IMG/VR virus record: IMGVR_UViG_3300013131_000021
Origin: a virus
DNA length: 64,000 bases
Reading direction: 5' to 3' (one strand)
Below, piece by piece: positions 15,491 to 48,587 of the stretch (within the stretch, counting starts at the first letter, position 1; the number at the start of each line of letters is the position of its first letter). A program made the translations under genes and the position numbers. The notes below the pieces were generated by a model. The model saw only the letters and a list, made by a program, of their open reading frames with translations. It was not told where the DNA came from and ran no database searches.

Positions 15491-16333
15491 ATGGATTATT
15501 ACGGTACTTTAGGTTTGAACAGAAATGCGTCTGAAGACGAAATTAAAAAAGCATATCGCAAATTAGCGATGAAGTATCATCCCGATCGTGGAGGTGATCA
15601 AAATAAATTTAAAGAAATTTCAACTGCATATGAGGCATTATCAGATCCAGAGAAGAAAAGAATAATTGATATGGGAGGCGATCCTAATGCACAGCCCAAC
15701 ATGGGCGGATTTAATCAAGGTCCTTTTGAATTTCATTTTGGAACTGAGAATCTTCATGACTTATTCGGTAATTTCGGCTTCGGCGCTTTTGGTAGACAAC
15801 CTGCTAAAAGAAACAGAACGTTGAGTATAAATGTAGAAATCACGTTAGAGGATGTACTATTAGGAAAAGAAATTAACGCTGATATTTCTATACCAGGTGG
15901 TAAAAGTAAAATGATTAATATACAAATTCCCCCCGGAATAGAGCATGGTCAACAAATAAGATACGAAGGAATGGGAGATAATTCTATTCAAGGATTAAGA
16001 CCTGGAGATCTTTTAGTAAACATTCTCGTTAGACAACACAATTTGTTTAGACGTGAAGGAACATCTTTAATAATAGAAAAAGAAATAACAGTATGGGATG
16101 CTATGTTAGGCACATCGATTAACATAGAAACTTTAGATAACAAAAAATTATCAATCAATATTCCACAAGGAACACAACCCGAAACAGTTTTAAGTTGTAA
16201 AGGTGAAGGTATTCCTCATATGCGCACACGTCAACGAGGCAATTTGTTAATTAAAGTAAAAATTAAAATTCCCAAATCGTTGCCAGCGCATCAAAAATCT
16301 ATAATAGAAAACTTTCAAAAAAATGGAATATAA
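15491..16333 (+). CDS. DnaJ/CbpA-type co-chaperone (J domain plus C-terminal domain, no zinc finger)
   Basis: YY..LG, HPD motif, G/F-rich linker, GDLLV, GNLLI. Confidence 0.9.
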   Translation: MDYYGTLGLNRNASEDEIKKAYRKLAMKYHPDRGGDQNKFKEISTAYEALSDPEKKRIIDMGGDPNAQPNMGGFNQGPFEFHFGTENLHDLFGNFGFGAFGRQPAKRNRTLSINVEITLEDVLLGKEINADISIPGGKSKMINIQIPPGIEHGQQIRYEGMGDNSIQGLRPGDLLVNILVRQHNLFRREGTSLIIEKEITVWDAMLGTSINIETLDNKKLSINIPQGTQPETVLSCKGEGIPHMRTRQRGNLLIKVKIKIPKSLPAHQKSIIENFQKNGI

Positions 16334-16817
16334 ATTAGGACCTCATCAGAGTTTAATTACCAAAAGCACAGAGTGGAATTTTTTCACTGACGGTGATGCA
16401 GAATTACTCGAAGCATCTATGATTAAATTTATGCTGACATGCAAAGGAATTGGATTAGCAGCCAATCAAATTGAAATTACTAAACGTGTGTTTATTATAG
16501 GCAGTGAAAATATCGTTGGATTTCCTAAACCGTTCGCCTGTTTTAACCCGCGTATATTGGAGTACGGTACTGAACAAATATTAGATGAAGAAGGTTGTTT
16601 AAGTTATCCGGGTTTATTTTTAAAAATAAAAAGACCTACTTGGGTGATTGCCGAATATCAAAATAGTAAAGGCGATTTAATAGAAGCTAAATTTGAAGGA
16701 TATCTAGCCAAATGTTTTCAACACGAACTAGATCATCTAGATGGTATATGTTTTGTTGACAGAGTCAGTAGGTTGAAACTAAACTTAGCTATGAAGAAAT
16801 TAAAGAAGGTAAAATAA
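16323..16817 (+). CDS. def: Peptide deformylase
   Basis: GIGLAANQ, EGCLSYP, QHELDHLDG. Confidence 0.93.
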   Translation: MEYKLGPHQSLITKSTEWNFFTDGDAELLEASMIKFMLTCKGIGLAANQIEITKRVFIIGSENIVGFPKPFACFNPRILEYGTEQILDEEGCLSYPGLFLKIKRPTWVIAEYQNSKGDLIEAKFEGYLAKCFQHELDHLDGICFVDRVSRLKLNLAMKKLKKVK

Positions 16818-19165
16818 TGATCGAACCAAGTAAAAATCTCCAAGATATTTTTCAAAATTCAATTAATGTTGCTAAAAAACTTAATCACGAATATATCACT
16901 GTAGAACATTTGATTTATTGTATAATGTTAGATTCGGATGCATATAATCTAATAGAAAGTTTTGGTGCTGATGCTAATTTTATTAAAACTAATTTAGATC
17001 ACTATCTTAAAAATAATTTAAATGACATTAAAACTTCCGATGCAGATTTTAAACCAAAAAAAACTAATAGTGTAGAACGTGTACTTAATAGATGCTTTAC
17101 ACAAGTCTTGTTTAGCGGCAGACAGCGCATGGAGGTTGCTGATGTTATTATTAGTGTGTTAAGTGAAAAAAATAGTTTTGGTTATTATTTTCTCACTAAG
17201 GGTGGAATAACAAAAGAAAAATTTATTAAATATTTTCAAGAAAATCTTATAGTAGAAATCGACGAAGACATAGAAGTTGAAACTAGGAGTATTACTACGA
17301 ATCAAATTGACAGAATACTAAATCAGTTTTGCACTAATCTAAGTTTAAAAGCAAAACAACGTAAAATTGATCCAGTAATTGGTAGAGATGAAGAAATTGA
17401 AAAAATCCAACTGGTACTTGCTAGAAGAAATAAAAGCAACGTACTGATGGTAGGTGATCCGGGTGTCGGTAAAACTGCCATCGCAGAGGGCCTGGCCCGT
17501 AAGATTTTTGAAAAGAAAGTTCCTAAATTTATTCAAGATCATCAAGTCTATTCTTTGGACATCAGTGCATTACTAGCAGGTTCTAAGTATCGAGGAGATT
17601 TCGAAGAAAGATTTAAAGCTGTTATGACTGCTTTAGAAAAGAAAGAAAAGGTAATTTTATTCATTGATGAAGCACACGTGATGCAAGGAGCAGGTGCTGC
17701 TAATCAAAGCTCAAACGATATGAGCAATATGCTGAAACCTATTCTCACCAAAGGCGTTATTAAGCTAATGGCATCTACAACTTGGGAAGAATATAGAAAA
17801 TATTTTGAAAGCGATCGTGCTTTAATGAGAAGATTTCAAAGAGTCAGCATAGAGGAACCATCTGCAGAAATGACAGTGAAAATACTTAAAGGACTGAGAA
17901 AATATTACGAGAATCATCACAAAGTAAAAATCAGTGAAGCCGCTATCGAACAGGCAGTAAAATTATCTATGAAATATATGTCTGATAAAAAATTACCGGA
18001 CAAAGCTATAGATATAATCGATTGTGCATGTGCTAGATATAAGATAAAAGATGATGCTGCAATGGAAGGAGTAGAACAGATTGTCGATATTGAACAAATT
18101 ACATATGAATTAAGTAAGATGATCAATATGCCTCTAGAAACTGTAGCACAGAAAGAAAGTAAAAATCTCAGTGATCTAGAAAAGCAAATGAAATCTGTTG
18201 TTTACGGTCAAAATAATGCTGTCGAAACTTTATTAGATAAAATTTTTGTAAGTCAAGCTGGCATGAAATCACCCAACAAGCCCATAGGAAGTTTCTTATT
18301 TCTAGGACCAACCGGTTGTGGAAAAACCGAAACAGCTAAACAATTGGCGGACAAAATGGGGATGCAACTTATTAGATTTGATATGGGTGAATATCAAGAA
18401 AAACACAGCGTAGCTAGACTTATAGGTGCTCCTCCCGGATACGTTGGTTATGAAGACAATGCTGGTATGTTGATCACTAAGCTACAAGAACATCCAAATT
18501 CTATTTTGTTATTAGATGAAATAGAGAAAGCGCATCCAGACGTTTCTAATATTTTACTAGCATTTATGGATAATGGATTTGTAACTGGTAGCAATGGTAA
18601 AGTGGCAGACGGTAGAAACAGTATTCTTATTATGACTTCTAATTTAGGTGCTGCCGATAATGAACGTAATACTATAGGTTTTGGAGATTTAGAAAGAGAT
18701 GGTGAAGATGAAAAAGCGGTTAAAAAATTCTTTGCTCCTGAATTTCGTAATCGATTAGATAGTGTAATTAAATTCAGTAAATTATCAAACGAAACTGTAT
18801 CGCAAATTGTAATTAAATTCATTAATGATTTGAATCAACAATTAAAAGATAAGGGTATAGAAATCGTAGCAAATAGCAAATCTGTTGTATGGTTGTCCGA
18901 GAAAGGCTATGATTCTAAGATGGGGGCTCGTCCTTTAGCTAGATTAATTGATAATGAGATTAAAAGTCCGTTGAGTCGTAGAGTTTTATTTGGAGATTTA
19001 GTTAACGGCGGCAGGGTGAACATCGATGTCATAGATGATAAATTAGAATTCACTATATCTGAAATTCCTAAACCGCTAACAAAAGAAGAAAGAAAAGCAG
19101 CAAAAGCAGCAGCAGCCGCTAGAGAATCTGCAAAGGCAGAAGAAAATGTTATCAACCAAAACTAA
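16817..19165 (+). CDS. clpA: ClpA-type AAA+ unfoldase
   Basis: Clp N-domain, two Walker A motifs (GDPGVGKT, GPTGCGKT), IGF loop for ClpP docking, no M-domain. Confidence 0.92.
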   Translation: MIEPSKNLQDIFQNSINVAKKLNHEYITVEHLIYCIMLDSDAYNLIESFGADANFIKTNLDHYLKNNLNDIKTSDADFKPKKTNSVERVLNRCFTQVLFSGRQRMEVADVIISVLSEKNSFGYYFLTKGGITKEKFIKYFQENLIVEIDEDIEVETRSITTNQIDRILNQFCTNLSLKAKQRKIDPVIGRDEEIEKIQLVLARRNKSNVLMVGDPGVGKTAIAEGLARKIFEKKVPKFIQDHQVYSLDISALLAGSKYRGDFEERFKAVMTALEKKEKVILFIDEAHVMQGAGAANQSSNDMSNMLKPILTKGVIKLMASTTWEEYRKYFESDRALMRRFQRVSIEEPSAEMTVKILKGLRKYYENHHKVKISEAAIEQAVKLSMKYMSDKKLPDKAIDIIDCACARYKIKDDAAMEGVEQIVDIEQITYELSKMINMPLETVAQKESKNLSDLEKQMKSVVYGQNNAVETLLDKIFVSQAGMKSPNKPIGSFLFLGPTGCGKTETAKQLADKMGMQLIRFDMGEYQEKHSVARLIGAPPGYVGYEDNAGMLITKLQEHPNSILLLDEIEKAHPDVSNILLAFMDNGFVTGSNGKVADGRNSILIMTSNLGAADNERNTIGFGDLERDGEDEKAVKKFFAPEFRNRLDSVIKFSKLSNETVSQIVIKFINDLNQQLKDKGIEIVANSKSVVWLSEKGYDSKMGARPLARLIDNEIKSPLSRRVLFGDLVNGGRVNIDVIDDKLEFTISEIPKPLTKEERKAAKAAAAARESAKAEENVINQN

Positions 19166-19826
19166 ATTAACTAATCGTAAATTTTATAACAAGTGGTTAT
19201 ATAAAACCACGTTAGAAATCGAAGGCGGTGCAATATTTAGGCTCAAAAATATAGAAGAGATTAAGAAATTTTGTTATTCTCCAGATCAATCGGAACACAA
19301 ATATTCTATATGGTCAAAGGCTTATAAAAATAAAAACAACATTTTGAATATTTGTGAGATTTTAGAAACTTATGACAAAAATATATATCAAACCCGTGTA
19401 GAAAGAAACTTAATTGATTTTTATACTAACGATAAAACATTTTACAGTCAGTTATCTGTGAAATTTGAGAATATTTTAAGACATAGATTTGAGCCTAGTG
19501 ATGCTACAATTAACGCTATAAGTGAATCAAATTGTTCTATCGCTGTGAAAAAATTACCCAAAGATAGATATCAATACAGAGTTTACTTACTACCTCATAA
19601 ACTAGCAGGAGATAAAGAAGCTAAAGTTAGATATATTGATTGGCTTAAATCTCAAAACGATAGAATCACCTGTACTAAAGCTATCGAAAAATGGTTTATA
19701 GAGACAGACTGGAATTGGGACCGAAGATATGTTCTAGTAGAAGACGAACGAGCACTGTTGATGTTAAAACTTAGAAACGCTGAGCTAATAGGACGGATTT
19801 ACAACTTTGTTATAACCGATAAATAA
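19146..19826 (+). CDS. Hypothetical protein
   Basis: 226-aa ORF overlapping the clpA end. Confidence 0.6.
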   Translation: MLSTKTKLTNRKFYNKWLYKTTLEIEGGAIFRLKNIEEIKKFCYSPDQSEHKYSIWSKAYKNKNNILNICEILETYDKNIYQTRVERNLIDFYTNDKTFYSQLSVKFENILRHRFEPSDATINAISESNCSIAVKKLPKDRYQYRVYLLPHKLAGDKEAKVRYIDWLKSQNDRITCTKAIEKWFIETDWNWDRRYVLVEDERALLMLKLRNAELIGRIYNFVITDK

Positions 19827-19829
19827 CAT

Positions 19830-20204
19830 ATGAGCTTCGAAACCGTCAAATTATTAGAAAATATCACTGTAAACTCTGCCTACGGTAGAGATTATAATTC
19901 ATTATTAGATTCCGAAACTTTATTCTATTCGGATAAAGGAAGGGGAGCGGGATACTACAAGTCTAATAACGGTATTCAAACAGTATTTTTTCATGTTGAA
20001 TCATTTGTAGGAACAATAAAGATACAGGCAACCTTAGAATTAAATCCAGGCGATATTGATTGGTTTGATGCTCATATAGAAACTTTTGCTTTAGACAGTT
20101 CAAATTCAAATAGATCCGCTACATTAACCGGGAATTTTGTTTACTTAAGAGCGGAATATCACATCGAAAACGGCGAAATCATAGACGTCCGTTATAATTA
20201 CTAA
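19830..20204 (+). CDS. Hypothetical late protein (beta-rich)
   Basis: TAAATA at 19820-19825 directly upstream. Confidence 0.55.
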   Translation: MSFETVKLLENITVNSAYGRDYNSLLDSETLFYSDKGRGAGYYKSNNGIQTVFFHVESFVGTIKIQATLELNPGDIDWFDAHIETFALDSSNSNRSATLTGNFVYLRAEYHIENGEIIDVRYNY

Positions 20205-20218
20205 CCTCCAAAGTTCGA

Positions 20219-20250
20219 TAAATATAGTATCATCTTAGGAAGATACTATG
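20219..20250 (+). promoter_or_regulatory. Late-promoter box plus RBS/start-occluding hairpin
   Basis: TAAATA at 20219-20224; ATAGTATC (20224-20231) pairs with GATACTAT (20242-20249); the loop contains AGGA. Confidence 0.6.
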
Positions 20251-21360
20251 AGAGACTTATTATCTAAATTAGACAGCATCGTCAACGAAACAGAACTTAA
20301 AAATCAGGGAGACCTGGAAGCTAAACGAAAAGCTTTAGATGAATTAGAAGCTGATCCTGTAGCTGCAAAAGATCCTGAAATTTCAGCTGCCATAGATCAG
20401 CGTAGATTAGACTTAGAAAAAGAAGCCAAATCAAAAGGGTTTGCCGAAGAATTCGAAATAGGTGATGATTTTGGTATAAGTTTTTCTGAAGATTTTGAAA
20501 TCTCAACAGAAATTTTAGGGTTTGTAGAAGATGGAATCGTTATCGAACTGGATGATCAAGCATTAGAACATCTAACCAACGAAGGTATTATATTCATCGA
20601 TGGCGAATTATCTGAATCTATAGACGAAGCTCGTGGGCCTTGTTGGGTCGGATATAAACAAGAAGGAATGAAAAAGAAAGGCAACAAAATGGTGCCTAAT
20701 TGTGTAAAAGAAGATCACGGTCCAGAAGATCCTGATGCAGAGTACAACAAAGGCGAATACGATCGTGAAGGCGATATGGCCAAAGACGATCTAAGAACCT
20801 TAAACGATGCTGCTAAAGAATTGTACGGTATCATCCAAGCGGACGAAAACTTGCCAGAATGGGTACAGGCTAAGATCGTCAAAGCCATGGACTATCTAGA
20901 TACTGCACGTGATTATATGAAAGCCAACAAGTATGCAGAAGACTACGACATTGATGAAAGCGGATTACAATATTCAATAGGTGTAGATAAACACGGTAAA
21001 GATTATATGACCAAGGCTGCTAAACTTATGCGTAATGGCGGCACCCAGCAACAACTTGGTGCTCTAAGAGATAAAGAAAGCAAGGCATATAAAAACAAAA
21101 AAGAAGATTTCGAAGTTGATGAAGCAGAGTATCGTGGAAAAAATGTTCCGTTAGGTAAGAAACTGCCCGGTGATGTTAAGAAATCAAAAGTCTATGTACG
21201 CAAGCCTAACGGCAATATTGTCAAGGTAAACTTCGGCGATAAGAAGATGCGTATCAAGAAATCTAATCCGGCACGTAGACGCAGTTTCCGTGCTAGACAT
21301 AATTGTAAGAATCCCGGCCCGCGCTGGAAGGCACGCTATTGGTCTTGTAGGAGCTGGTAA
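20248..21360 (+). CDS. Mosaic acidic/basic multi-module protein, putative internal head protein
   Basis: Modules bounded by IDE|A, VKE|D, IDE|S, VDE|A; highly basic Cys-containing terminal module. Confidence 0.55.
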   Translation: MRDLLSKLDSIVNETELKNQGDLEAKRKALDELEADPVAAKDPEISAAIDQRRLDLEKEAKSKGFAEEFEIGDDFGISFSEDFEISTEILGFVEDGIVIELDDQALEHLTNEGIIFIDGELSESIDEARGPCWVGYKQEGMKKKGNKMVPNCVKEDHGPEDPDAEYNKGEYDREGDMAKDDLRTLNDAAKELYGIIQADENLPEWVQAKIVKAMDYLDTARDYMKANKYAEDYDIDESGLQYSIGVDKHGKDYMTKAAKLMRNGGTQQQLGALRDKESKAYKNKKEDFEVDEAEYRGKNVPLGKKLPGDVKKSKVYVRKPNGNIVKVNFGDKKMRIKKSNPARRRSFRARHNCKNPGPRWKARYWSCRSW

Positions 21361-21695
21361 TGCTTTTAAAAGAGATGTGGAGTCCTATAGGGGCGCCTAA
21401 AGTAGACGATCAAGAAATAGATTGGTTAGATGATTTACATTATCATATAGATAATAACGATTATCTGCTAAACAAATATTTTTTCCCCGCGGTTAAACGT
21501 CATAAAGAACATAAAGGTAATCCTAATGTTTTTAAGGTTTATATTAGACCTTTGGAAAAATGTAAAGAAAATTACTGCGAGCAATATAATATAGAAAATC
21601 CAGAAGAGAAATTTCCAAAAGAAAAGATAATTGAATTAGCGAAAAGATTTGCTGAAGAACAAGATAAACATATTGAAAAAGGCGATTACGATTAA
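21360..21695 (+). CDS. Hypothetical protein (MLLKE N-terminus)
   Basis: Coupled ORF within the internal-protein cluster. Confidence 0.55.
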   Translation: MLLKEMWSPIGAPKVDDQEIDWLDDLHYHIDNNDYLLNKYFFPAVKRHKEHKGNPNVFKVYIRPLEKCKENYCEQYNIENPEEKFPKEKIIELAKRFAEEQDKHIEKGDYD

Positions 21696-22942
21696 TGCTG
21701 TTAAAACAACTGTTCGAGTCTGATACTAAGCATGTCACATTCTGCTTCGGTAGGATAAATCCTCCTACCATTGGACACAAACAGGTTCTCGATACTATGA
21801 AAAGTCAAGGCGGAGATATGAAAATATTTGTCAGCCAAAGTCAAGATCCTAAAAAAAATCCTTTGGATTATTCTACAAAAATAAAATTTATTAAAGCTAT
21901 GTTTCCTGAATACGCAGGTGATGTAGTGGATGATGCTGGTCTAAATACCATAGTGAAAGTAGCTGCATATCTATACGACCAAGGTTATAATGCTGCAACT
22001 TTTGTAGCTGGTAGCGATCGATTAGAAGATATAAAAAAACTTCTAACACAGTATAATGGCGTCGAAGGTAAAGCTCACGGATTTTATAATTTTGAAGTTT
22101 TAGATTTTGTTTCAAGTGGTGAACGTGAAGACGGTGCAGAGGGAGTTGCAGGAGTTAGTGCCAGTGGTGCTAGAGCTGCTGCGGCCAATAATGATTTCTC
22201 AGCTTTCCAAGAAGCTACTGGCGCAGGCGAATTAGCCAAACCACTGTATGATGCTGTACGAAAAGGCATGGGCATCAAAGAAAGTGTCAGCGAAGGTTGG
22301 AAGAGCAAGGCTGCAGGTGCAGCTCTAGCTGCTGCTAACTTGCTAGGATCGCCTGCACAGGCCACAGACGAACCAGTGAAACCAATCACGATCGCTTATG
22401 TAAAAATAGATGGTGAAGTGCGAAGTTATAATCTCGGAGATAAATTTGCCAATGCTAGAGAAGCAGAAGAATTCATCACTAAAATTTTAGATAAACAAGG
22501 ACTCAGCGGATATTATCTCGAAATCAAACATGGTTATCCTAAGAAAAAAAATGAATCTATAAAAGAAGCTCCTATAGAAATGGATCCTGCAGACCCGATG
22601 GATCCCATGATCTATGGACACGATAAAGCCAACCCTGCAAAGTTAAAATATAGAATGCTGAGAGCAGCTAATCAAATCAAAGATCTTGCCAGTCGTGTAG
22701 ACAATGCTAGTCCTGCTGAATGGCAAACAATAACTCGTCAATTCGATGAATTGAAAATGAATGTTGAACAAATACGACATGCTCTAGAAGAACTAGCCAA
22801 GGTTCGTAAGAAGGGCGGGGTTCGTAGTCGTGGCATAGATAAATTTATCGATAGTATAGAAGAGGGATACGGACGTTATTGGTGTTCAACAGATAAGAAG
22901 TGGAAAACTCGAAAGGGTCCTAAACAGAGTAGAAAATCATGA
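21695..22942 (+). CDS. HIGH-superfamily nucleotidyltransferase domain fused to extra modules
   Basis: MLLKQLFE leader, FGRINPPTIGH (TxGH), KNPL, VAGSDR, SASGARAAA; unrelated modules follow VSE|G, IKE|A and IEE|G. Confidence 0.7.
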   Translation: MLLKQLFESDTKHVTFCFGRINPPTIGHKQVLDTMKSQGGDMKIFVSQSQDPKKNPLDYSTKIKFIKAMFPEYAGDVVDDAGLNTIVKVAAYLYDQGYNAATFVAGSDRLEDIKKLLTQYNGVEGKAHGFYNFEVLDFVSSGEREDGAEGVAGVSASGARAAAANNDFSAFQEATGAGELAKPLYDAVRKGMGIKESVSEGWKSKAAGAALAAANLLGSPAQATDEPVKPITIAYVKIDGEVRSYNLGDKFANAREAEEFITKILDKQGLSGYYLEIKHGYPKKKNESIKEAPIEMDPADPMDPMIYGHDKANPAKLKYRMLRAANQIKDLASRVDNASPAEWQTITRQFDELKMNVEQIRHALEELAKVRKKGGVRSRGIDKFIDSIEEGYGRYWCSTDKKWKTRKGPKQSRKS

Positions 22943-23883
22943 GAGCAAAAGAATTTATCATAGAAAATAAAAAAGATCGCAGAGCTAAAAAATACAATAT
23001 CAAGCCTCGTAACCCTATGGGTACTGCTCCTCAAACAGGTGCTGGCGCACACAAAGATAAAAAGAAAGCCGACAAACAAGGTGATGTCAAACACAAAGGC
23101 AAACAGTTTGACGAAGGTGTGGCGGAAGGCTCACTAAGTGAATTTGCACCAGGAGGTAATTCTTCGTCAAGTTATTATGCTGTCACTGCAAACTTTGTGA
23201 TTGATTTTGTTCAACAAAAAGAAGAAGAAACACAGGATCTAATAGATTCTGGATGGACAAAACAAGACTTGGAGCAATCAGGCCACTGGCAAGGTCAGGA
23301 AGCTGACATTACATATTTTGCACAGGTGCGTGATGGTTTCTTAAAAGGACTAAAGTCGGGGTTTGATGCATACTTGCAAGGTGACACACAGTTAAAAGAT
23401 CAGTTAGGTGAATACTGGATAGACAACGGTTTATCACTTAACCAAAACTGGAAAAAGATATACGGTGAACCTTGGGGCCGTGATGAGTATGATGAAAGCA
23501 TGATGGAAGCCACAGGTGATAACAAGTTTGATAAGATGCTTAAAGGTATCACAGGTAAAAAACCGGTAGCCAAACAACAAAAAGCAGATACCAAACAACA
23601 GGCACGTGGTGCTTTTGATAATATGTTTGGTGGAGGCAATCCTGCTGACAAACTTGGCATTAGGAAAAAAGGTGTGGCGGAAGATACCAATATCCCTTTT
23701 AATCAATGTCCGCATTGCCGTGGTCCTATCTTTCATGAAAGCTTAATAAATGAAAAACAGGATGCCTGTTATCATAAAGTTCGCAGCAGATATAAAGTAT
23801 GGCCTTCGGCATATGCTTCGGGTGCATTAGTTCAGTGTCGCAAGAAAGGTGCTAAGAATTGGGGTAATAAGAGTAAAAAATGA
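22939..23883 (+). CDS. Mosaic protein with a CTS-like N-terminus (MRAKEFIIE)
   Basis: Modules separated by GVAE|G, MME|A, GVAE|D and INE|K. Confidence 0.55.
   Translation: MRAKEFIIENKKDRRAKKYNIKPRNPMGTAPQTGAGAHKDKKKADKQGDVKHKGKQFDEGVAEGSLSEFAPGGNSSSSYYAVTANFVIDFVQQKEEETQDLIDSGWTKQDLEQSGHWQGQEADITYFAQVRDGFLKGLKSGFDAYLQGDTQLKDQLGEYWIDNGLSLNQNWKKIYGEPWGRDEYDESMMEATGDNKFDKMLKGITGKKPVAKQQKADTKQQARGAFDNMFGGGNPADKLGIRKKGVAEDTNIPFNQCPHCRGPIFHESLINEKQDACYHKVRSRYKVWPSAYASGALVQCRKKGAKNWGNKSKK
23114..23683 (+). repeat. 15-bp direct repeat AAGGTGTGGCGGAAG at 23114-23128 and 23669-23683
   Basis: Exact in-frame copies (encoding GVAE) 555 bp apart. Confidence 0.85.
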
Positions 23884-24488
23884 GATTTTTTGAAATAGAA
23901 GATTTTAGAAAAGTTCCGATAGAAAACTTTGTTCCTAAAGAAGAAGATCTAAACGACTTAAAATCTAAGTTTTTGCCCGATTGGGAAATGCTAGATCATC
24001 AATATCTCACTGCCAAATACGTAGCTAAAGATCACAGACACGCTTTTAAATTTATTGATTTTATAAATCGTCTTTCAGAAAAGATGGATCATTTCACTGA
24101 AGTAACTCAAGATGTTGCAGAAGTAAAAGTTCGCACATCAACTTTTGATGTAGAGGGCTTAACAATTTTAGATTTTAAAATAGCTCTTTATATAGATAGA
24201 TACGCAGAAAAAAACGACATAGAACAAGTTCGAATGAGCGGCAATTTCGGAATGCACGAGAATCTAAAACAATGGTTTAAAGATAAATGGGTTAGATTTG
24301 GTCCTGATGGAAAGATTCGTGGAAACTGCGCTAGAGGTTCAGATAAAGAAGGTAAACCTAAATGTCTGCCACAAAGTAAAGCTCACAGCCTAGGAAAAAA
24401 AGGGCGTGCCACCGCGGCAACTCGTAAACGCAGAGAAGATCCTAATCCAGAACGCAAAGGTGCAGCTAAAAATGTTAGAACTAAATGA
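23880..24488 (+). CDS. Pterin-4a-carbinolamine dehydratase-like domain fused to a basic C-terminal module
   Basis: PDWE...AF.FI..I..LSEKMDHF.EV....V.V.T.T.DV.GLT..DF pattern; basic module after MHE|N. Confidence 0.6.
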   Translation: MRFFEIEDFRKVPIENFVPKEEDLNDLKSKFLPDWEMLDHQYLTAKYVAKDHRHAFKFIDFINRLSEKMDHFTEVTQDVAEVKVRTSTFDVEGLTILDFKIALYIDRYAEKNDIEQVRMSGNFGMHENLKQWFKDKWVRFGPDGKIRGNCARGSDKEGKPKCLPQSKAHSLGKKGRATAATRKRREDPNPERKGAAKNVRTK

Positions 24489-24687
24489 CCTTAAGCGTCT
24501 AGCTGGAATAAACGAATTCAAAGGCTACCAGCCCTATGGTGGTAGCAACATAAGTATCACTGGTAATGAAAAAGGTGAACTCATGCGTAAGCACAATATT
24601 AAACCTGGAACTCCAGAATGGTTTCAGTTGTGGTTTAGCTTACCTTATCTAACCGGAGAAAAACCTGTGGGAGATAAAAATGGTTGA
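24472..24687 (+). CDS. Small protein ([15 protein letters not shown] leader)
   Basis: ATG at 24472; LKRLAGI-x-E leader; [11 protein letters not shown] motif. Confidence 0.55.
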
Positions 24688-25006
24688 AATAACTGAAAAT
24701 GCAAAACAGAAAGTCATAGACTTATTGATTGATGAAAACAATCCAAACCTTATGCTTCGCACATTTGTCCAAGGCGGTGGTTGCAGTGGATTTCAATATG
24801 GATTCACATTCGACGAAGAACAGAACGAAGATGATTTCGAAATATCATTAGATGAGAAATGGAAATTAGTCGTTGATGCCATGAGTATGCAGTATCTAAC
24901 AGGAGCTGTAATCGATTATAGTGAGGATCTAAACGGCGCTAATTTCAGCATCAAAAATCCAAATGCACAAACTTCCTGTGGATGCGGATCAAGTTTTTCA
25001 GTATGA
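24680..25006 (+). CDS. erpA: A-type Fe-S cluster carrier (ErpA/IscA, HesB family)
   Basis: GGGCSGFQY and [14 protein letters not shown] motifs. Confidence 0.92.
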
Positions 25007-25009
25007 TAT

Positions 25010-26080
25010 ATGAGAGCTAAAGAATTTATATTAGAAAAAAGACGTAAAAGACCTCGCTGGGCAGCGTATGGTCCAGGACTATACGGTGGTTATGGTTATG
25101 ATTCTGGTTATAGTGGCGACGGAGTAGGAGAAGCGTCATATGAAGGAAATATAGGAATTATGGAGCTGTCCAAATTTTTCCAAACTGCTTCGGAAAAACA
25201 AAAAGAATTATTTAAGCAATTTTTAGAAAAAGGTAAAAAAGGTTTAGCTTGGAAATTGGTGCAAGATACTGTAGGTGTACAATTACAAGGAAAAGAATTC
25301 GAAGATCAACATCCAAACGAAAAATCTAGAGGTACTGAATTTAAACCAAAGAAACTTGTTGTCTTTGATATAGACGACACATTGGTCAATACTCAAACAA
25401 AAGTACATGTAATTAAAGATGGACGGGTGGTTGACAGTTTAAACAGTCATGACTTCACGCACTATAAACTAAAGCCTGAAGAGAGTTTTGATTTTGAAGA
25501 TTTCCGTAATGCCAAAGAATTCTTTGAAAAATCTAAACCAATTATACCTATGATGAATCAACTAAAGCGTGATATCGCCACAGGGAATAAAGTAGTAATG
25601 GTTACGGCTAGAGCAGACTTTGATGATAAAGTATTATTTTTAGACACTTTCCGCAAACATGGCGTAGACATAGATAAAGTACATGTTTATCGTGCAGGTA
25701 ATAGTAAACAAGGTACTACAGAAGAACGTAAAAAAGCCATCATTAAAAATCTTTTAGATAAAGATAATTACACCAAAGCTATTATGTATGATGATGCTAA
25801 ACCTAATCTACATACTTTCATAGAACTTAAACAAGATCATCCCAACACAAGATTCTATGCTTGGCATGTAAACTCAATAGGAAATGCATCTGAATATATG
25901 CGTGAAAACTTTGCTGATGGTAAAATTAAGGGTAAAAGTCGTCCTGGGCGGGTAAAGCGTGCTGGTGCTAGTTGCAATGGATCCGTTACAGATTTACGCA
26001 AACGTGCTAAAAATGCTTCGGGCGAAAAAGCCAAAATGTATCATTGGTGCGCTAATATGAAGAGCGGAAAAAATAAATAA
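25010..26080 (+). CDS. HAD-superfamily phosphatase domain within a CTS-led mosaic protein
   Basis: MRAKEFILE leader; VVFDIDDTL, VTAR, K, YDD motifs; basic module after MRE|N. Confidence 0.7.
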   Translation: MRAKEFILEKRRKRPRWAAYGPGLYGGYGYDSGYSGDGVGEASYEGNIGIMELSKFFQTASEKQKELFKQFLEKGKKGLAWKLVQDTVGVQLQGKEFEDQHPNEKSRGTEFKPKKLVVFDIDDTLVNTQTKVHVIKDGRVVDSLNSHDFTHYKLKPEESFDFEDFRNAKEFFEKSKPIIPMMNQLKRDIATGNKVVMVTARADFDDKVLFLDTFRKHGVDIDKVHVYRAGNSKQGTTEERKKAIIKNLLDKDNYTKAIMYDDAKPNLHTFIELKQDHPNTRFYAWHVNSIGNASEYMRENFADGKIKGKSRPGRVKRAGASCNGSVTDLRKRAKNASGEKAKMYHWCANMKSGKNK

Positions 26081-26086
26081 TATATT

Positions 26087-26347
26087 ATGAAAATACGTGA
26101 TATTTTAGAATCAGCTACCGCAGGTGCTACTAGTGCAGGTAATATTGCGGCGGTGAAAAATCCACATATCAGCCCCGGAAAAGCCCGAGGTAAAAAAAGT
26201 TATATAGGAAGTCCTACAAGTGGCAGTGGTACTAAATCTCCACCCCAACCAAAAGTAGTTCAGCCTAAAAACAAAGACGGAACAGCTAAAAATGCGCTAG
26301 ATCAACGTGCCAGTTTATTTGGTGAAGGCAATTACGTCAAAAGATAA
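26087..26347 (+). CDS. Small basic protein with a CTS-like leader (MKIRDILE|SATAG)
   Basis: TAAATA at 26074-26079; Lys/Gly/Pro-rich body. Confidence 0.6.
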   Translation: MKIRDILESATAGATSAGNIAAVKNPHISPGKARGKKSYIGSPTSGSGTKSPPQPKVVQPKNKDGTAKNALDQRASLFGEGNYVKR

Positions 26348-26376
26348 ATACATTATAAAACTTTAGGATCATCATT

Positions 26377-27678
26377 ATGGACTTTAAAACACTTATTACA
26401 AAAATCAGCGAGCTAGATGACAAAATTAACACTATCCCTGCTCCGGAATTACAAAAAGCTGTGCAGTTAAATGAGGATGCACAACTACGTGTATTAGCTG
26501 GTACTTCTTCTTACATTGCAGAAGCTAAGAAAAAAGCCGAAGAAAAGAAAGAAGATAAAGTAGATGAAGGTCAAGAAGATCTTAAGAAAGTTGGCGACAA
26601 AGTTAAAACTTCTAAAGGCGTGATGACAAAAACTGCTACAGGACTAAAGCATGAACGTTCTTATGAAAAAGAAAAAGACGAAGATGATGATGCTCCTAAA
26701 GCTAAAAAAGCAAAGAAAGAAAGTATTGAGCCTGAATTCAAATCTAAGTTCATGAAGATGGTTGAAGCTAAGAAAGAAGAAAAAGACGCTAAGAAAAAGA
26801 AAGAAAAGAAAATGGAAGAAGCTGTGACTCTTAAGCCTGGTGTTAAAGAAAAAGCAGAAAAAGAAAAAGCAGAAAGAGAAGCTGAAGCAAAACGCCGTGC
26901 AGAATCACCTGGCGTAAGTCTGAAGAAAAAACCAATGGGCGAAGCAGCCAAACCAGATTTCCTAGATCTCGACAAAGACGGTGACAAGAAAGAGCCTATG
27001 AAAGGTGCTGCCAAATCTAAAGGCGGCGATAAGAAAGAAGGTGGCAAGAAGGGCATGAGTGCTGCGCAGGCCAAATATTTCGGTGGCAAGAAAAATGAAT
27101 CGGTCAAAGCGTCTAAGAAAGTAGTTGCTGAGTCAGTTGAAACAGTCATGACATTCAAAGACATGGTCAAGCTAGTTCAGGAAAGCGGTGGACAACAACA
27201 GATCGATACATTAGACACTGAATTGTTTAATTGGGCGCAACGTGTTGCAAAAAATAAATTGGGTGAAGGTATGAAAGCAGATTTATATGCTGGTTTGATC
27301 TATGAGCGTAACGGCGGCAAGTTCGAAATGTACGACGTACTGGCAGAAAATCAAAAAAAAAAACTAAATGAATACGGAGATGATTATGAAGGAGATATTG
27401 ATCCAGATAATCCGCCGTTAGATGCTACTGGTATGGATTATTATGAAAAACATAATTCAAGAGATATGATGTGCCCATTTATTGCTAAACAAGCTGGCAT
27501 TCCGGATCAATCTCATCGCGTTCTTTATTTTGACGATGCCGATCTTGTTTTCTATGAGAAAAACGTAGCAAACTTAAATGATACAATTGGCGAAATGATC
27601 GAAAAAGTAAAATCGTTTATGCAAACCAATCCAAAGTATGCAAGCAGAACTATAAAATTAGCAGCGAATATGAGATAA
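26377..27678 (+). CDS. Lys/Glu-rich low-complexity protein, putative prohead core/scaffold or internal protein
   Basis: TAAATA at 26345-26350; many x-x-E|A/G/D boundaries; DFLDLDKDGDKKE motif. Confidence 0.55.
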   Translation: MDFKTLITKISELDDKINTIPAPELQKAVQLNEDAQLRVLAGTSSYIAEAKKKAEEKKEDKVDEGQEDLKKVGDKVKTSKGVMTKTATGLKHERSYEKEKDEDDDAPKAKKAKKESIEPEFKSKFMKMVEAKKEEKDAKKKKEKKMEEAVTLKPGVKEKAEKEKAEREAEAKRRAESPGVSLKKKPMGEAAKPDFLDLDKDGDKKEPMKGAAKSKGGDKKEGGKKGMSAAQAKYFGGKKNESVKASKKVVAESVETVMTFKDMVKLVQESGGQQQIDTLDTELFNWAQRVAKNKLGEGMKADLYAGLIYERNGGKFEMYDVLAENQKKKLNEYGDDYEGDIDPDNPPLDATGMDYYEKHNSRDMMCPFIAKQAGIPDQSHRVLYFDDADLVFYEKNVANLNDTIGEMIEKVKSFMQTNPKYASRTIKLAANMR

Positions 27679-27698
27679 TTAAATTAAAAATTGTAATT

Positions 27699-27731
27699 AA
27701 AAAAGCCAGTCATAGGTTGACTGGCTTTTTT
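27699..27731 (+). terminator. Intrinsic terminator
   Basis: AAAAAAGCCAGTCA-TAGGT-TGACTGGCTTTTTT ending the internal-protein cluster. Confidence 0.85.
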
Positions 27732-27766
27732 ATTGACTATATAATAGCTCTATAAGGAGATATTAT

Positions 27767-28033
27767 ATGGCTAAAATGTACGGTCCTGAAGAGCGAGCAA
27801 AATTAGAAAGACTGATCAACGAAGGCAGCAATGTGCTTCGTGAAGTTGAAGATCTACAAGAAGGTCTTAAAGAAACTGTCAAAGCGGTAGCAGAAGAGCT
27901 GCAGGTCAAACCAAGTATTATCAATAAAGCGATCAAGATTGCACATAAAGACAATTGGAAATCTCACGAAGAAGAATGGGATGAGATTGAAATGATTTTA
28001 GGCGTTACAAAGAAATTACCAGAGAAAGATTAA
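27767..28033 (+). CDS. Small helical DNA-binding protein (T4 DsbA/GapR-like)
   Basis: Pattern of extra copies/E..E.L...KETVK.V.EE..V.P..INK.IK.AH; AAGGAG RBS; upstream of the polymerase. Confidence 0.5.
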   Translation: MAKMYGPEERAKLERLINEGSNVLREVEDLQEGLKETVKAVAEELQVKPSIINKAIKIAHKDNWKSHEEEWDEIEMILGVTKKLPEKD

Positions 28034-28440: not shown

Positions 28441-28476
28441 CTATCGTACAGAAAATAAATAACTGTGTGAAAAGTT

Positions 28477-48054: not shown

Positions 48055-48081
48055 TTAACGCAGTACATAAATATTTTCACT

Positions 48082-48351
48082 ATGTTCGATCTAAATCCTA
48101 AAGATGTGCTAAATCAAAGAAAACTTGGATTTATGCCGCCTCATTTTTCAAAAATTAAAATAGCGGACAACGAATTCTTTGATGGAGTCGAAGAATGGGT
48201 GAAGACCAAATTAAAGGGAAGATATTGCATTGTAAGATATCCAAACTTAGATCAAAATTCTTCTTTACGTTCGTCATATTGTTTAGGTCTTGAAGATCAA
48301 AAAGAACTTACATTTTTTATGTTAGCATGTCCACATTTAAGGAGAAATTAA
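48082..48351 (+). CDS. Hypothetical protein
   Basis: TAAATA at 48068-48073 upstream. Confidence 0.55.
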   Translation: MFDLNPKDVLNQRKLGFMPPHFSKIKIADNEFFDGVEEWVKTKLKGRYCIVRYPNLDQNSSLRSSYCLGLEDQKELTFFMLACPHLRRN

Positions 48352-48587
48352 TGACAGAAGAAGTTAAAACTCAACAAGAACCAGTTGACACAACTCAGAC
48401 AGCAGATGCTGCACAACCAGCACCTGCAGGTCCTGATTTAAATGTTAGCGATTTAGTTGCTTTAAAAAACATCATAGAGATCGCAACACAAAGAGGTGCA
48501 TTTAAAGCAGCTGAACTAGAAGCAGTTGGAAAAACATTTAACAAACTTAATATGTTTTTAGATGCAGTAGCTAAAAAGGAGTCGTAA
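48351..48587 (+). CDS. Hypothetical protein
   Basis: ATG at 48351 with AGGAG RBS; RGAFKAAEL motif. Confidence 0.6.
   Translation: MTEEVKTQQEPVDTTQTADAAQPAPAGPDLNVSDLVALKNIIEIATQRGAFKAAELEAVGKTFNKLNMFLDAVAKKES

Follow-up and report, generated by a model that had tools for sequence, protein, structure and literature searches.

A cassette of putative capsid-packed polyproteins in an uncultured T4-type phage, with modules joined at predicted prohead-protease sites

The virus record IMGVR_UViG_3300013131_000021 (IMG/VR), analysed here over a stretch of 64,000 nucleotides (the window), derives from an uncultured large T4-type phage. Positions 19830-27678 of the window hold a gene block of ~8 kb, which we call the cassette: eleven + strand genes (P0-P10), tightly packed and mostly overlapping in the list of open reading frames, with a DnaJ/ClpA-like chaperone pair on one side and a family-B DNA polymerase on the other. 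On comparative sequence grounds, we think it likely that this block encodes cargo that would be packed into the capsid and cut into modules by a gp21-type prohead protease. Comparisons across relatives are based on an IMG/VR scan with P3, which yielded 79 related loci (viral contigs); a DNA-level search against phages returned short module matches only and no close relative. The genes and the modules that we distinguish in their products are listed below.

19830-20204, + strand: P0, 124 aa, acidic, starting MSFETVKLLE-N, with a joint after the E; homologues lie immediately 5' of the cassette in 52 related loci.
20248-21360, + strand: P1, putative polyprotein of 370 aa, starting MRDLLSKLDSIVNE; leader 1-14, acidic module 15-127, CWxGY basic mini-module 128-155, acidic helical module 156-237, a further piece 238-292, basic two-Cys module G 293-370.
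21360-21695, + strand: P2, 111 aa, conserved (present in 64 related loci), starting MLLKE.
21695-22942, + strand: P3, putative polyprotein of 415 aa, starting MLLKQLFE; leader 1-8, nucleotidyltransferase like NMN adenylyltransferase (NMNAT) 9-200, module A 201-291, helical module B 292-390, basic module C 391-415.
22939-23883, + strand: P4, putative polyprotein of 314 aa, starting MRAKEFIIE; leader 1-9, basic DUF7230-like module 10-63, acidic module 64-248, CPHC knuckle 249-272, basic WPSAYASG module F 273-314.
23880-24488, + strand: P5, 202 aa, starting MRFFEIE; short leader MRFFE/IE, pterin-4a-carbinolamine dehydratase (PCD, PF01329) 6-127, basic two-Cys module D 128-202.
24472-24687, + strand: P6, 71 aa, a 15-residue leader followed by a small basic protein; homologues in 58 loci share the start ATG.
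24680-25006, + strand: P7, 108 aa, IscA/HesB-like Fe-S protein (PF01521) with no convincing leader; conserved in 67 loci.
25010-26080, + strand: P8, putative polyprotein of 356 aa, starting MRAKEFILE; leader 1-9, basic Gly/Tyr-rich piece 10-41, HAD phosphatase 42-299, basic two-Cys module E 300-356.
26087-26347, + strand: P9, 86 aa, leader MKIRDILE followed by SATAGATSAGNIA; present in 75 loci.
26377-27678, + strand: P10, 433 aa, starting with the leader MDFKTLITKISE; a Lys/Glu-rich region and an extra C-terminal module at ~325-433.
20629-20712, 21124-21357, 23755-23880, 24261-24485 and 25907-26077 of the window: two-Cys modules H, G, F, D and E, respectively.

P0 probably belongs to the block. 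Pfam and PHROG identify three enzymes in the cassette, namely the cytidylyltransferase-like nucleotidyltransferase of P3 (PF01467; also matches to phrog_395/3041), the PCD of P5, and the HAD phosphatase of P8; the structural model of the first has a fold like that of NadM-type NMNAT and PPAT. Pfam gave no match for P1, P2, P4, P6, P9, or P10, P2 also matched no PHROG family, and the ESM Atlas offered no usable match for modules A and B of P3. When the products are cut at the predicted boundaries, the acidic pieces have a pI of ~4.1-4.2 and the basic pieces, 25-78 residues long, a pI of 9.6-11.5. Together with the three enzymes, these values bear out the alternation of acidic, highly basic, and enzymatic modules proposed in an earlier inspection of the letters and translations (the sequence-only reading). 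That reading had also called the short basic peptides DNA-binding; the label is unsupported, since Foldseek returned nothing at E <= 0.001 when queried with the P1 model and the small basic modules matched no family. The basic modules H, G, F, D, and E have exactly two conserved Cys each, and a CPxC knuckle usually precedes module F, bringing its total to four; a disulfide or a metal site seems possible. P7 was considered as cargo and rejected because its MVEITE start seems to belong to the fold and is not followed by a joint; it is probably not cargo.

Module boundaries had been placed by the sequence-only reading at sites of the form hydrophobic-x-Glu followed by a small residue. The N-termini that it quoted are all present in the sequence, and so are its seven internal boundaries:

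SIDE-A, P1 residues 127/128.
SVSE-G, P3 residues 200/201.
SIKE-A, P3 residues 291/292.
GVAE-G, P4 residues 63/64.
GMHE-N, P5 residues 127/128.
YMRE-N, P8 residues 299/300.
QLNE-D, P10 residues 33/34.

In the 79 related viral contigs, modules are reordered, dropped, or swapped exactly at hydrophobic-x-Glu joints, so that, in the comparison across relatives proposed by the sequence-only reading, Glu sites coincide with homology breakpoints. Some of the orders are as follows, CT standing for the cytidylyltransferase-like domain:

Window P3: CT-A-B-C.
L037: CT-B-A-C, with A and B swapped.
L053: CT-PCD-C.
L055: CT-B-PCD-C.
L062: CT-(sigma-70 region 4)-A-B.
L064 and L066: chains of ~1,100 residues ending B-(A)-C.

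The PCD module of P5 thus reappears in L053 and L055 inside the nucleotidyltransferase polyprotein, followed by a GMHE joint and then module C, and module B, when it comes last, ends without the linker that otherwise follows it. Other products behave in the same manner. The middle modules of P1 are inserted, dropped, or reordered among relatives; the 10-63 piece of P4 is followed by a different module in ~30 relatives, each time behind hydrophobic-x-Glu; and the 10-41 piece of P8 leads into GH19, HAD, or other modules. The C-terminal module of P10, which follows VLAE/KLNE sites, is absent from most relatives, with homology stopping at residue 327 in 55 loci. Module D is seen again in gp160 of phage S-CREM2. 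Module E stands directly behind a leader in relatives (MRAKEFVIE-NFADGK) and behind the HAD enzyme in the window (YMRE-NFADGK), with the same joint residue in both settings.

The residues around the joints are strongly constrained. In protease notation, where sites P1 to P4 are counted back from the joint and site P1' follows it (not to be confused with the genes), Glu occupies site P1 in 82/82 distinct contexts of the five unrelated modules A, B, C, E, and G, and a hydrophobic residue occupies site P3 in 75/82. A profile of module G built without the joint and searched against 1.84 billion representatives matched at least 3,891 cluster representatives. Among the best 149 of these, which are at most 50% identical overall and have 145 distinct upstream octamers, site P1 is Glu in 149/149, site P1' is Ala in 148, and site P3 is V/L/M/I in 133, while site P2 is variable; the background Glu frequency is 7.9%. 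Module F is found in at least 7,999 database proteins and in 365 phage records, again behind hydrophobic-x-Glu. Alignment breakpoints in tblastn fall near hydrophobic-x-Glu sites twice as often as near randomly placed sites (p ~0.001), an enrichment for which the sequence-only reading had proposed a statistical comparison. In AlphaFold models of P1 and P3, the leader and every homology-defined joint lie in low-confidence linkers (in P3, the confidence score pLDDT is < 50 at residues 1-9, 197-228, 283-312, and 376-394), and the other hydrophobic-x-Glu triplets lie in folded parts and are not shuffling points. A second joint type, GES[IV][EK]xE, has its hydrophobic residue at site P4.

The N-terminal leaders end in the same kind of motif, as do the T4-type propeptides of ~10-20 residues, which close with Leu/Ile-x-Glu. 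In the window they end at LFE8 (P3), IIE9 (P4), ILE9 (P8), ILE8 (P9), INE15 (P6), ISE12 (P10), and VNE14 (P1). The likeness to T4 leaders that had been pointed out holds: MRAKEFI[IL]E has a KEFI.E core in common, by sequence similarity, with the experimentally defined T4 capsid-targeting sequence (CTS) MKTYQEFIAE, which is hydrophobic or aromatic at positions 4 and 7 and with which IPII and IPIII start (MKTYQEFIAE-A, translated from NC_000866), IPI starting MKTFKEFTSTTTPVSTITE-A. The leader pattern is found in 9/11 cassette genes of the window versus 11/84 others (Fisher p = 6e-6), and across the related loci in 118/261 distinct cassette N-termini versus 45/446 in the flanks (p = 5e-26, for N-termini that are not independent of one another). 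Three classes recur: M-R/K-A-x-E-F-I/V-x-E, M-K-I-x-E/D-I-L-E, and M-L-L-x-x-L-F-E, the last of which (P3) resembles the start of the relatives' gp22-like scaffold, MLDIVKQLFE. P4 and P8, otherwise unrelated, begin MRAKEFIIE-N and MRAKEFILE-K, and their leaders use different synonymous codons behind unrelated upstream DNA, which argues that selection acts on the peptide; on the same grounds we rejected the idea that the leaders are conserved DNA or recombination joints.

A protease of the appropriate type is encoded by relatives that carry the cassette. The gp21-type protease (Peptidase_S77, PF03420) scores above the Pfam cut-off in 4/5 large cassette-carrying related contigs, and it adjoins gp22-like scaffold and gp23-type (PF07068) capsid genes. 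The gp23-type capsid protein of relatives (L090:1465-2628, - strand) reads RKYLAE-SATAGATSAGNVATLN, and P9 of the window reads MKIRDILE-SATAGATSAGNIAAV; 12 of 13 residues behind the P9 leader (SATAGATSAGN[IV]A) match those after YLAE in the capsid protein. P9 may mimic the cut site or the N-arm of the capsid protein, judging from this match. In BLASTP, the YLAE Glu and the T4 gp23 site E65-A66 do not coincide, the former lying closer to the conserved core by 12 residues, so a cut of the capsid protein at YLAE is predicted rather than aligned. The protease-containing head cluster of relatives also includes a 158-aa gene (L087:2905-3381, - strand; L086:71-547, + strand) with WSSGPTA and IYIFGFD motifs.

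Cultured phages connect homologues of these genes to virions. The T4-like cyanophage S-CREM2 has a comparable gene run behind its late sigma factor gene, in which the cytidylyltransferase (ORF154/gp154) has the leader MKNFSSFLTE and gp160 (ORF160) carries modules D, H, and F in a row, with KLSE, MVHE, and EISE as the separating joints. Mass spectrometry of S-CREM2 virions detected ORF154, 155, 156, and 160 (PMC10665884), and NMNAT-like proteins turn up repeatedly in the virion proteomes of other cyanophages (PMC9602691). In the cyanophages S-E7, S-B68, and S-SCSM1, proteins with module F bear a structural/virion annotation. A similar cassette in phage C48C1 encodes module G as a gene of its own, behind the leader MKKFKQYIDE.

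Many modules open, right after the joint, with a Sec-like segment consisting of GWKxK, then 12-15 Ala/Gly/Leu residues, and then AxA; module A of P3, for instance, opens with the signal-peptide-like GWKSKAAGAALAAANLLGSPAQA. In two relatives, a Tat-like RRxFL[KR]G segment takes the place of the Sec-like one, and some export-signal-like segments in relatives precede a GH19 (PF00182) wall-hydrolase domain. Such segments are found at:

22295-22363 of the window (P3 residues 201-223).
L077:12437-13606.
L081:8476-9861.
L064:10381-10986.
L038:9983-11452.

The export-signal-like segments after joints and the P9 copy of capsid residues are new here. A sigma-70 region 4 domain (PF04545) occupies residues 262-309 of the product of L062:10001-11539, as a module between joints of the nucleotidyltransferase polyprotein; once packaged, such a module might act on host transcription as a decoy or a modifier.

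In T4, a tag of ten residues directs proteins into the head; gp21 then removes it, and a Glu-to-Asp change in the CTS blocks this cut. We propose that in the cassette a short capsid-targeting leader would likewise bind each variable gene product to the prohead scaffolding core. Strung behind the leader would be unrelated modules (the NMNAT-like nucleotidyltransferase, PCD, HAD phosphatase, acidic spacers, and basic two-Cys peptides), and the flexible linkers between them would end in hydrophobic-x-Glu plus a small residue, the specificity of gp21-type proteases. Inside the prohead, the protease would take off the leaders and cut the chains into separate proteins, which would remain with the DNA and presumably be carried into the next host. 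Since each module comes with a predicted cut site of its own, recombination could freely add, drop, and reorder cargo. Overall, the interpretation offered by the sequence-only reading is supported. We infer targeting to the prohead core and cutting at the joints from strong comparative evidence together with the T4 precedent (PMC9026906, PMC5694885). The virion detection of homologues suggests that the pieces would be retained in the head, and we further infer their injection and the function of individual modules.

A wider version of this proposal, which we put forward tentatively and hold to be improbable, would see a general plug-in cargo grammar in aquatic T4-like phages that extends to thousands of proteins. 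Cutting would unmask Sec/Tat signals, the delivered GH19 hydrolase and a small alpha/beta domain would be re-exported to the periplasm of the new host, and the NMNAT-like enzyme, the sigma-70 region 4 decoy, and the basic peptides would act in the cytoplasm.

Several observations weigh against reading the block as packaged cargo. The S-CREM2 virion identifications consist of only 3-7 peptides each (PMC10665884). Many P4-type leaders in relatives are without the final Glu (e.g., MKAKEFIPASKPRNFV), and some joints have no hydrophobic residue at site P3, as in ESIEHE-N, where it stands at site P4. The cassette adjoins replication genes rather than head genes, a leaderless IscA gene is embedded within it, and the ATAAATA box that precedes several of its genes also precedes the DNA polymerase gene (at 28455). 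Finally, the export-signal-like segments could indicate another destination.

The best-surviving alternative, though an unlikely one, is that packaging and cutting take place but that the pieces have no effector role. They would instead serve mainly as prohead core or filler and as DNA counter-ions: the acidic spacers would leave the head after cutting, the basic peptides would neutralise and condense the large genome, as with adenovirus VII and mu and the T4 internal peptides, and the enzymes would ride as passengers. It would suit the alternation of acidic modules (pI ~4.1) with very basic ones (pI 9.6-11.5), the distribution of the small basic modules, far wider than that of any other piece (G in at least 3,891 cluster representatives, F in at least 7,999 proteins), and the large size of the phage, whose close relatives have contigs of up to 281 kb; T4 itself cuts gp22, gp67, and gp68 to small peptides (PMC5694885). 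It leaves unexplained the conserved catalytic motifs, the well-folded enzymes, the sigma-70 region 4 and GH19 modules, and the export-signal-like segments. As far as only the basic peptides are concerned, it does not conflict with the cargo reading.

Much less probable is a scheme in which gp21 or another protease would release modules from the chains for export by the cell that makes them (e.g., a signal-bearing GH19 lysin for lysis), with no packaging or delivery. The Sec-like and the two Tat-like (RRxFLK) segments directly after joints, some of them before GH19, are what it would predict, but T4-type gp21 is active only within assembled proheads (PMC9026906), most modules are without such a segment, the leaders match the CTS, and homologues are virion-associated. 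About equally improbable is that these are ordinary multidomain cytoplasmic proteins whose Glu linkers and N-terminal words are kept for folding, translation initiation, or recombination, with neither cleavage nor packaging: the cassette does lie among replication/metabolic genes with an unrelated IscA gene embedded, and hydrophobic-x-Glu is a common tripeptide that also occurs inside folded domains, but the site P1 Glu is invariant over unrelated modules in hundreds of contexts while site P2 and the upstream sequence vary, leader and internal joint are interchangeable at the same residue, a module at the end of a chain has no linker, synonymous codons vary between the leaders, and homologues are found in purified virions.

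If the cassette encodes packaged cargo, as we favour, its nearest known counterpart would be the T4 internal-protein system, in which IPI, IPII, IPIII, and Alt carry a CTS and are processed by gp21 (Mullaney and Black 1996; PMC9026906, PMC3012670). The two have in common a short leader of the MK-x-F/Y-x-EF-x-x-E type ending in hydrophobic-x-Glu, small and basic mature proteins, a gp21-type protease in the clade, a locus that is hypervariable between relatives, and a cargo that includes an enzyme (Alt in T4). Unlike T4, the cassette has several unrelated modules per leader, each with its own candidate cut site, which would make its products true polyproteins. Its module set is much larger and freely permuted (NMNAT-like, PCD, HAD/NT5C, GH19, sigma-70 region 4, and ligase-like DUF6267), some modules open with export-signal-like segments, and homology to IPI-III is limited to the leader.

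The inner-body and ejection proteins of phiKZ, 201phi2-1, and SPN3US are similar in that a prohead protease related to that of T4 cleaves many proteins of the head interior after Glu (PMC5694885, PMC10052503), propeptides may hold several cut sites, and paralogues have common N-terminal words. They differ in their Ser/Ala/Gly-x-Glu motif (site P3 is V/L/M/I in 89-91% of cassette joints), in propeptides of ~100 residues or more, and in having no chains of shuffled small modules; no modules homologous to the phiKZ inner body were found, and the PHROG/Pfam matches of the cassette are unknown-function families of T4-like marine phages. Polyvalent proteins (Iyer et al. 2017, PMC5512222) likewise combine many unrelated effector domains per polypeptide and are predicted to travel with DNA and be cut, but they have their own embedded peptidases, occur in MuF, portal, or type IV secretion contexts, and have few reported cases in cyanobacteria (PMC5512222). 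Pfam and PHROG searches of the window proteins and of ten diverse relatives turned up neither a peptidase nor a MuF domain, and the cassette joints match an external prohead protease. Because the defining features of polyvalent proteins and of the phiKZ inner body were not found, we set the cassette with the T4 internal-protein system. Adenovirus pVII and pX/mu are very basic DNA-associated peptides released in the capsid by the maturation protease; they belong to an unrelated virus with an unrelated protease and unrelated sequences and come with no enzyme cargo, so that they serve as an analogy only.

In full-text literature searches, we found descriptions of the CTS concept, of giant-phage ejection proteins, and of polyvalent proteins, and none of protease-jointed polyproteins in T4-like aquatic phages; to our knowledge, a wider use of such tags by T4 relatives has only been speculated on in reviews. 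If the cargo reading is right, abundant aquatic phages would arrive in their hosts with large, rapidly evolving sets of ready-made proteins, encoded in an easily recognisable format, and the group includes cultured cyanophages in whose virion proteomes such proteins are already found. The format would then provide function-by-context for thousands of "hypothetical" marine and freshwater phage proteins, account for the nucleotidyltransferases repeatedly found in cyanophage virions, and offer a natural multi-cargo design for phage-based protein delivery.

The transcription signals of the block are the following:

19819, + strand: ATAAATA box before P0; 11 nt upstream in 48/52 relatives.
20218-20224, + strand: ATAAATA box with a likeness to T4-type late promoters, 30 nt before P1; ~31 nt before P1-type genes in relatives.
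26073, + strand: ATAAATA box before P9.
26344-26350, + strand: ATAAATA box 33 nt before P10; kept upstream of 67/74 P10 homologues.
27698-27732, + strand: intrinsic terminator, GCCAGTCA-loop-TGACTGGC followed by a T run, which closes the block.

ATAAATA is depleted in the window (13 observed versus 40.7 expected), and 9/9 of its + strand copies stand just upstream of + strand genes, 4 of them within the block. Relatives have kept it ahead of P0, P1, P9, and P10 and lack it ahead of the internal genes. The boxes before P1 (-30) and P10 (-33) are well placed, with a spacing that suits a T4-type late promoter, and a promoter role for those at 19819 and 26073 is doubtful because they end only 4-7 nt before the ATG. 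The canonical T4 box, TATAAATA, was not found upstream of the block. Late transcription of the block is likely, although its timing is not secure because of the box before the DNA polymerase gene. The terminator hairpin, missed by a simple terminator scan and found by folding, has a folding energy of -22.4 kcal/mol (z = -7.2). The boxes leading the block and the strong terminator closing it are both present, as originally described.

A near-consensus sigma-70 promoter (27717-27745; TTGACT, 17 nt spacer, TATAAT) overlaps the terminator tail, and the small gene behind it (27767-28033) matches the phage transcriptional regulator family phrog_639. Upstream of the cassette, the chaperone pair at 15491-19165 comprises a DnaJ homologue (PF00226, PF01556) and a 782-aa ClpA/ClpB-like AAA+ protein (phrog_4871); a phage chaperone/unfoldase pair adjoining head cargo genes is worth noting. 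Outside the cassette, a small gene at 48327-48587 with the CTS-like start MSTFKEKLMTE lies downstream of an ATAAATA at 48067.

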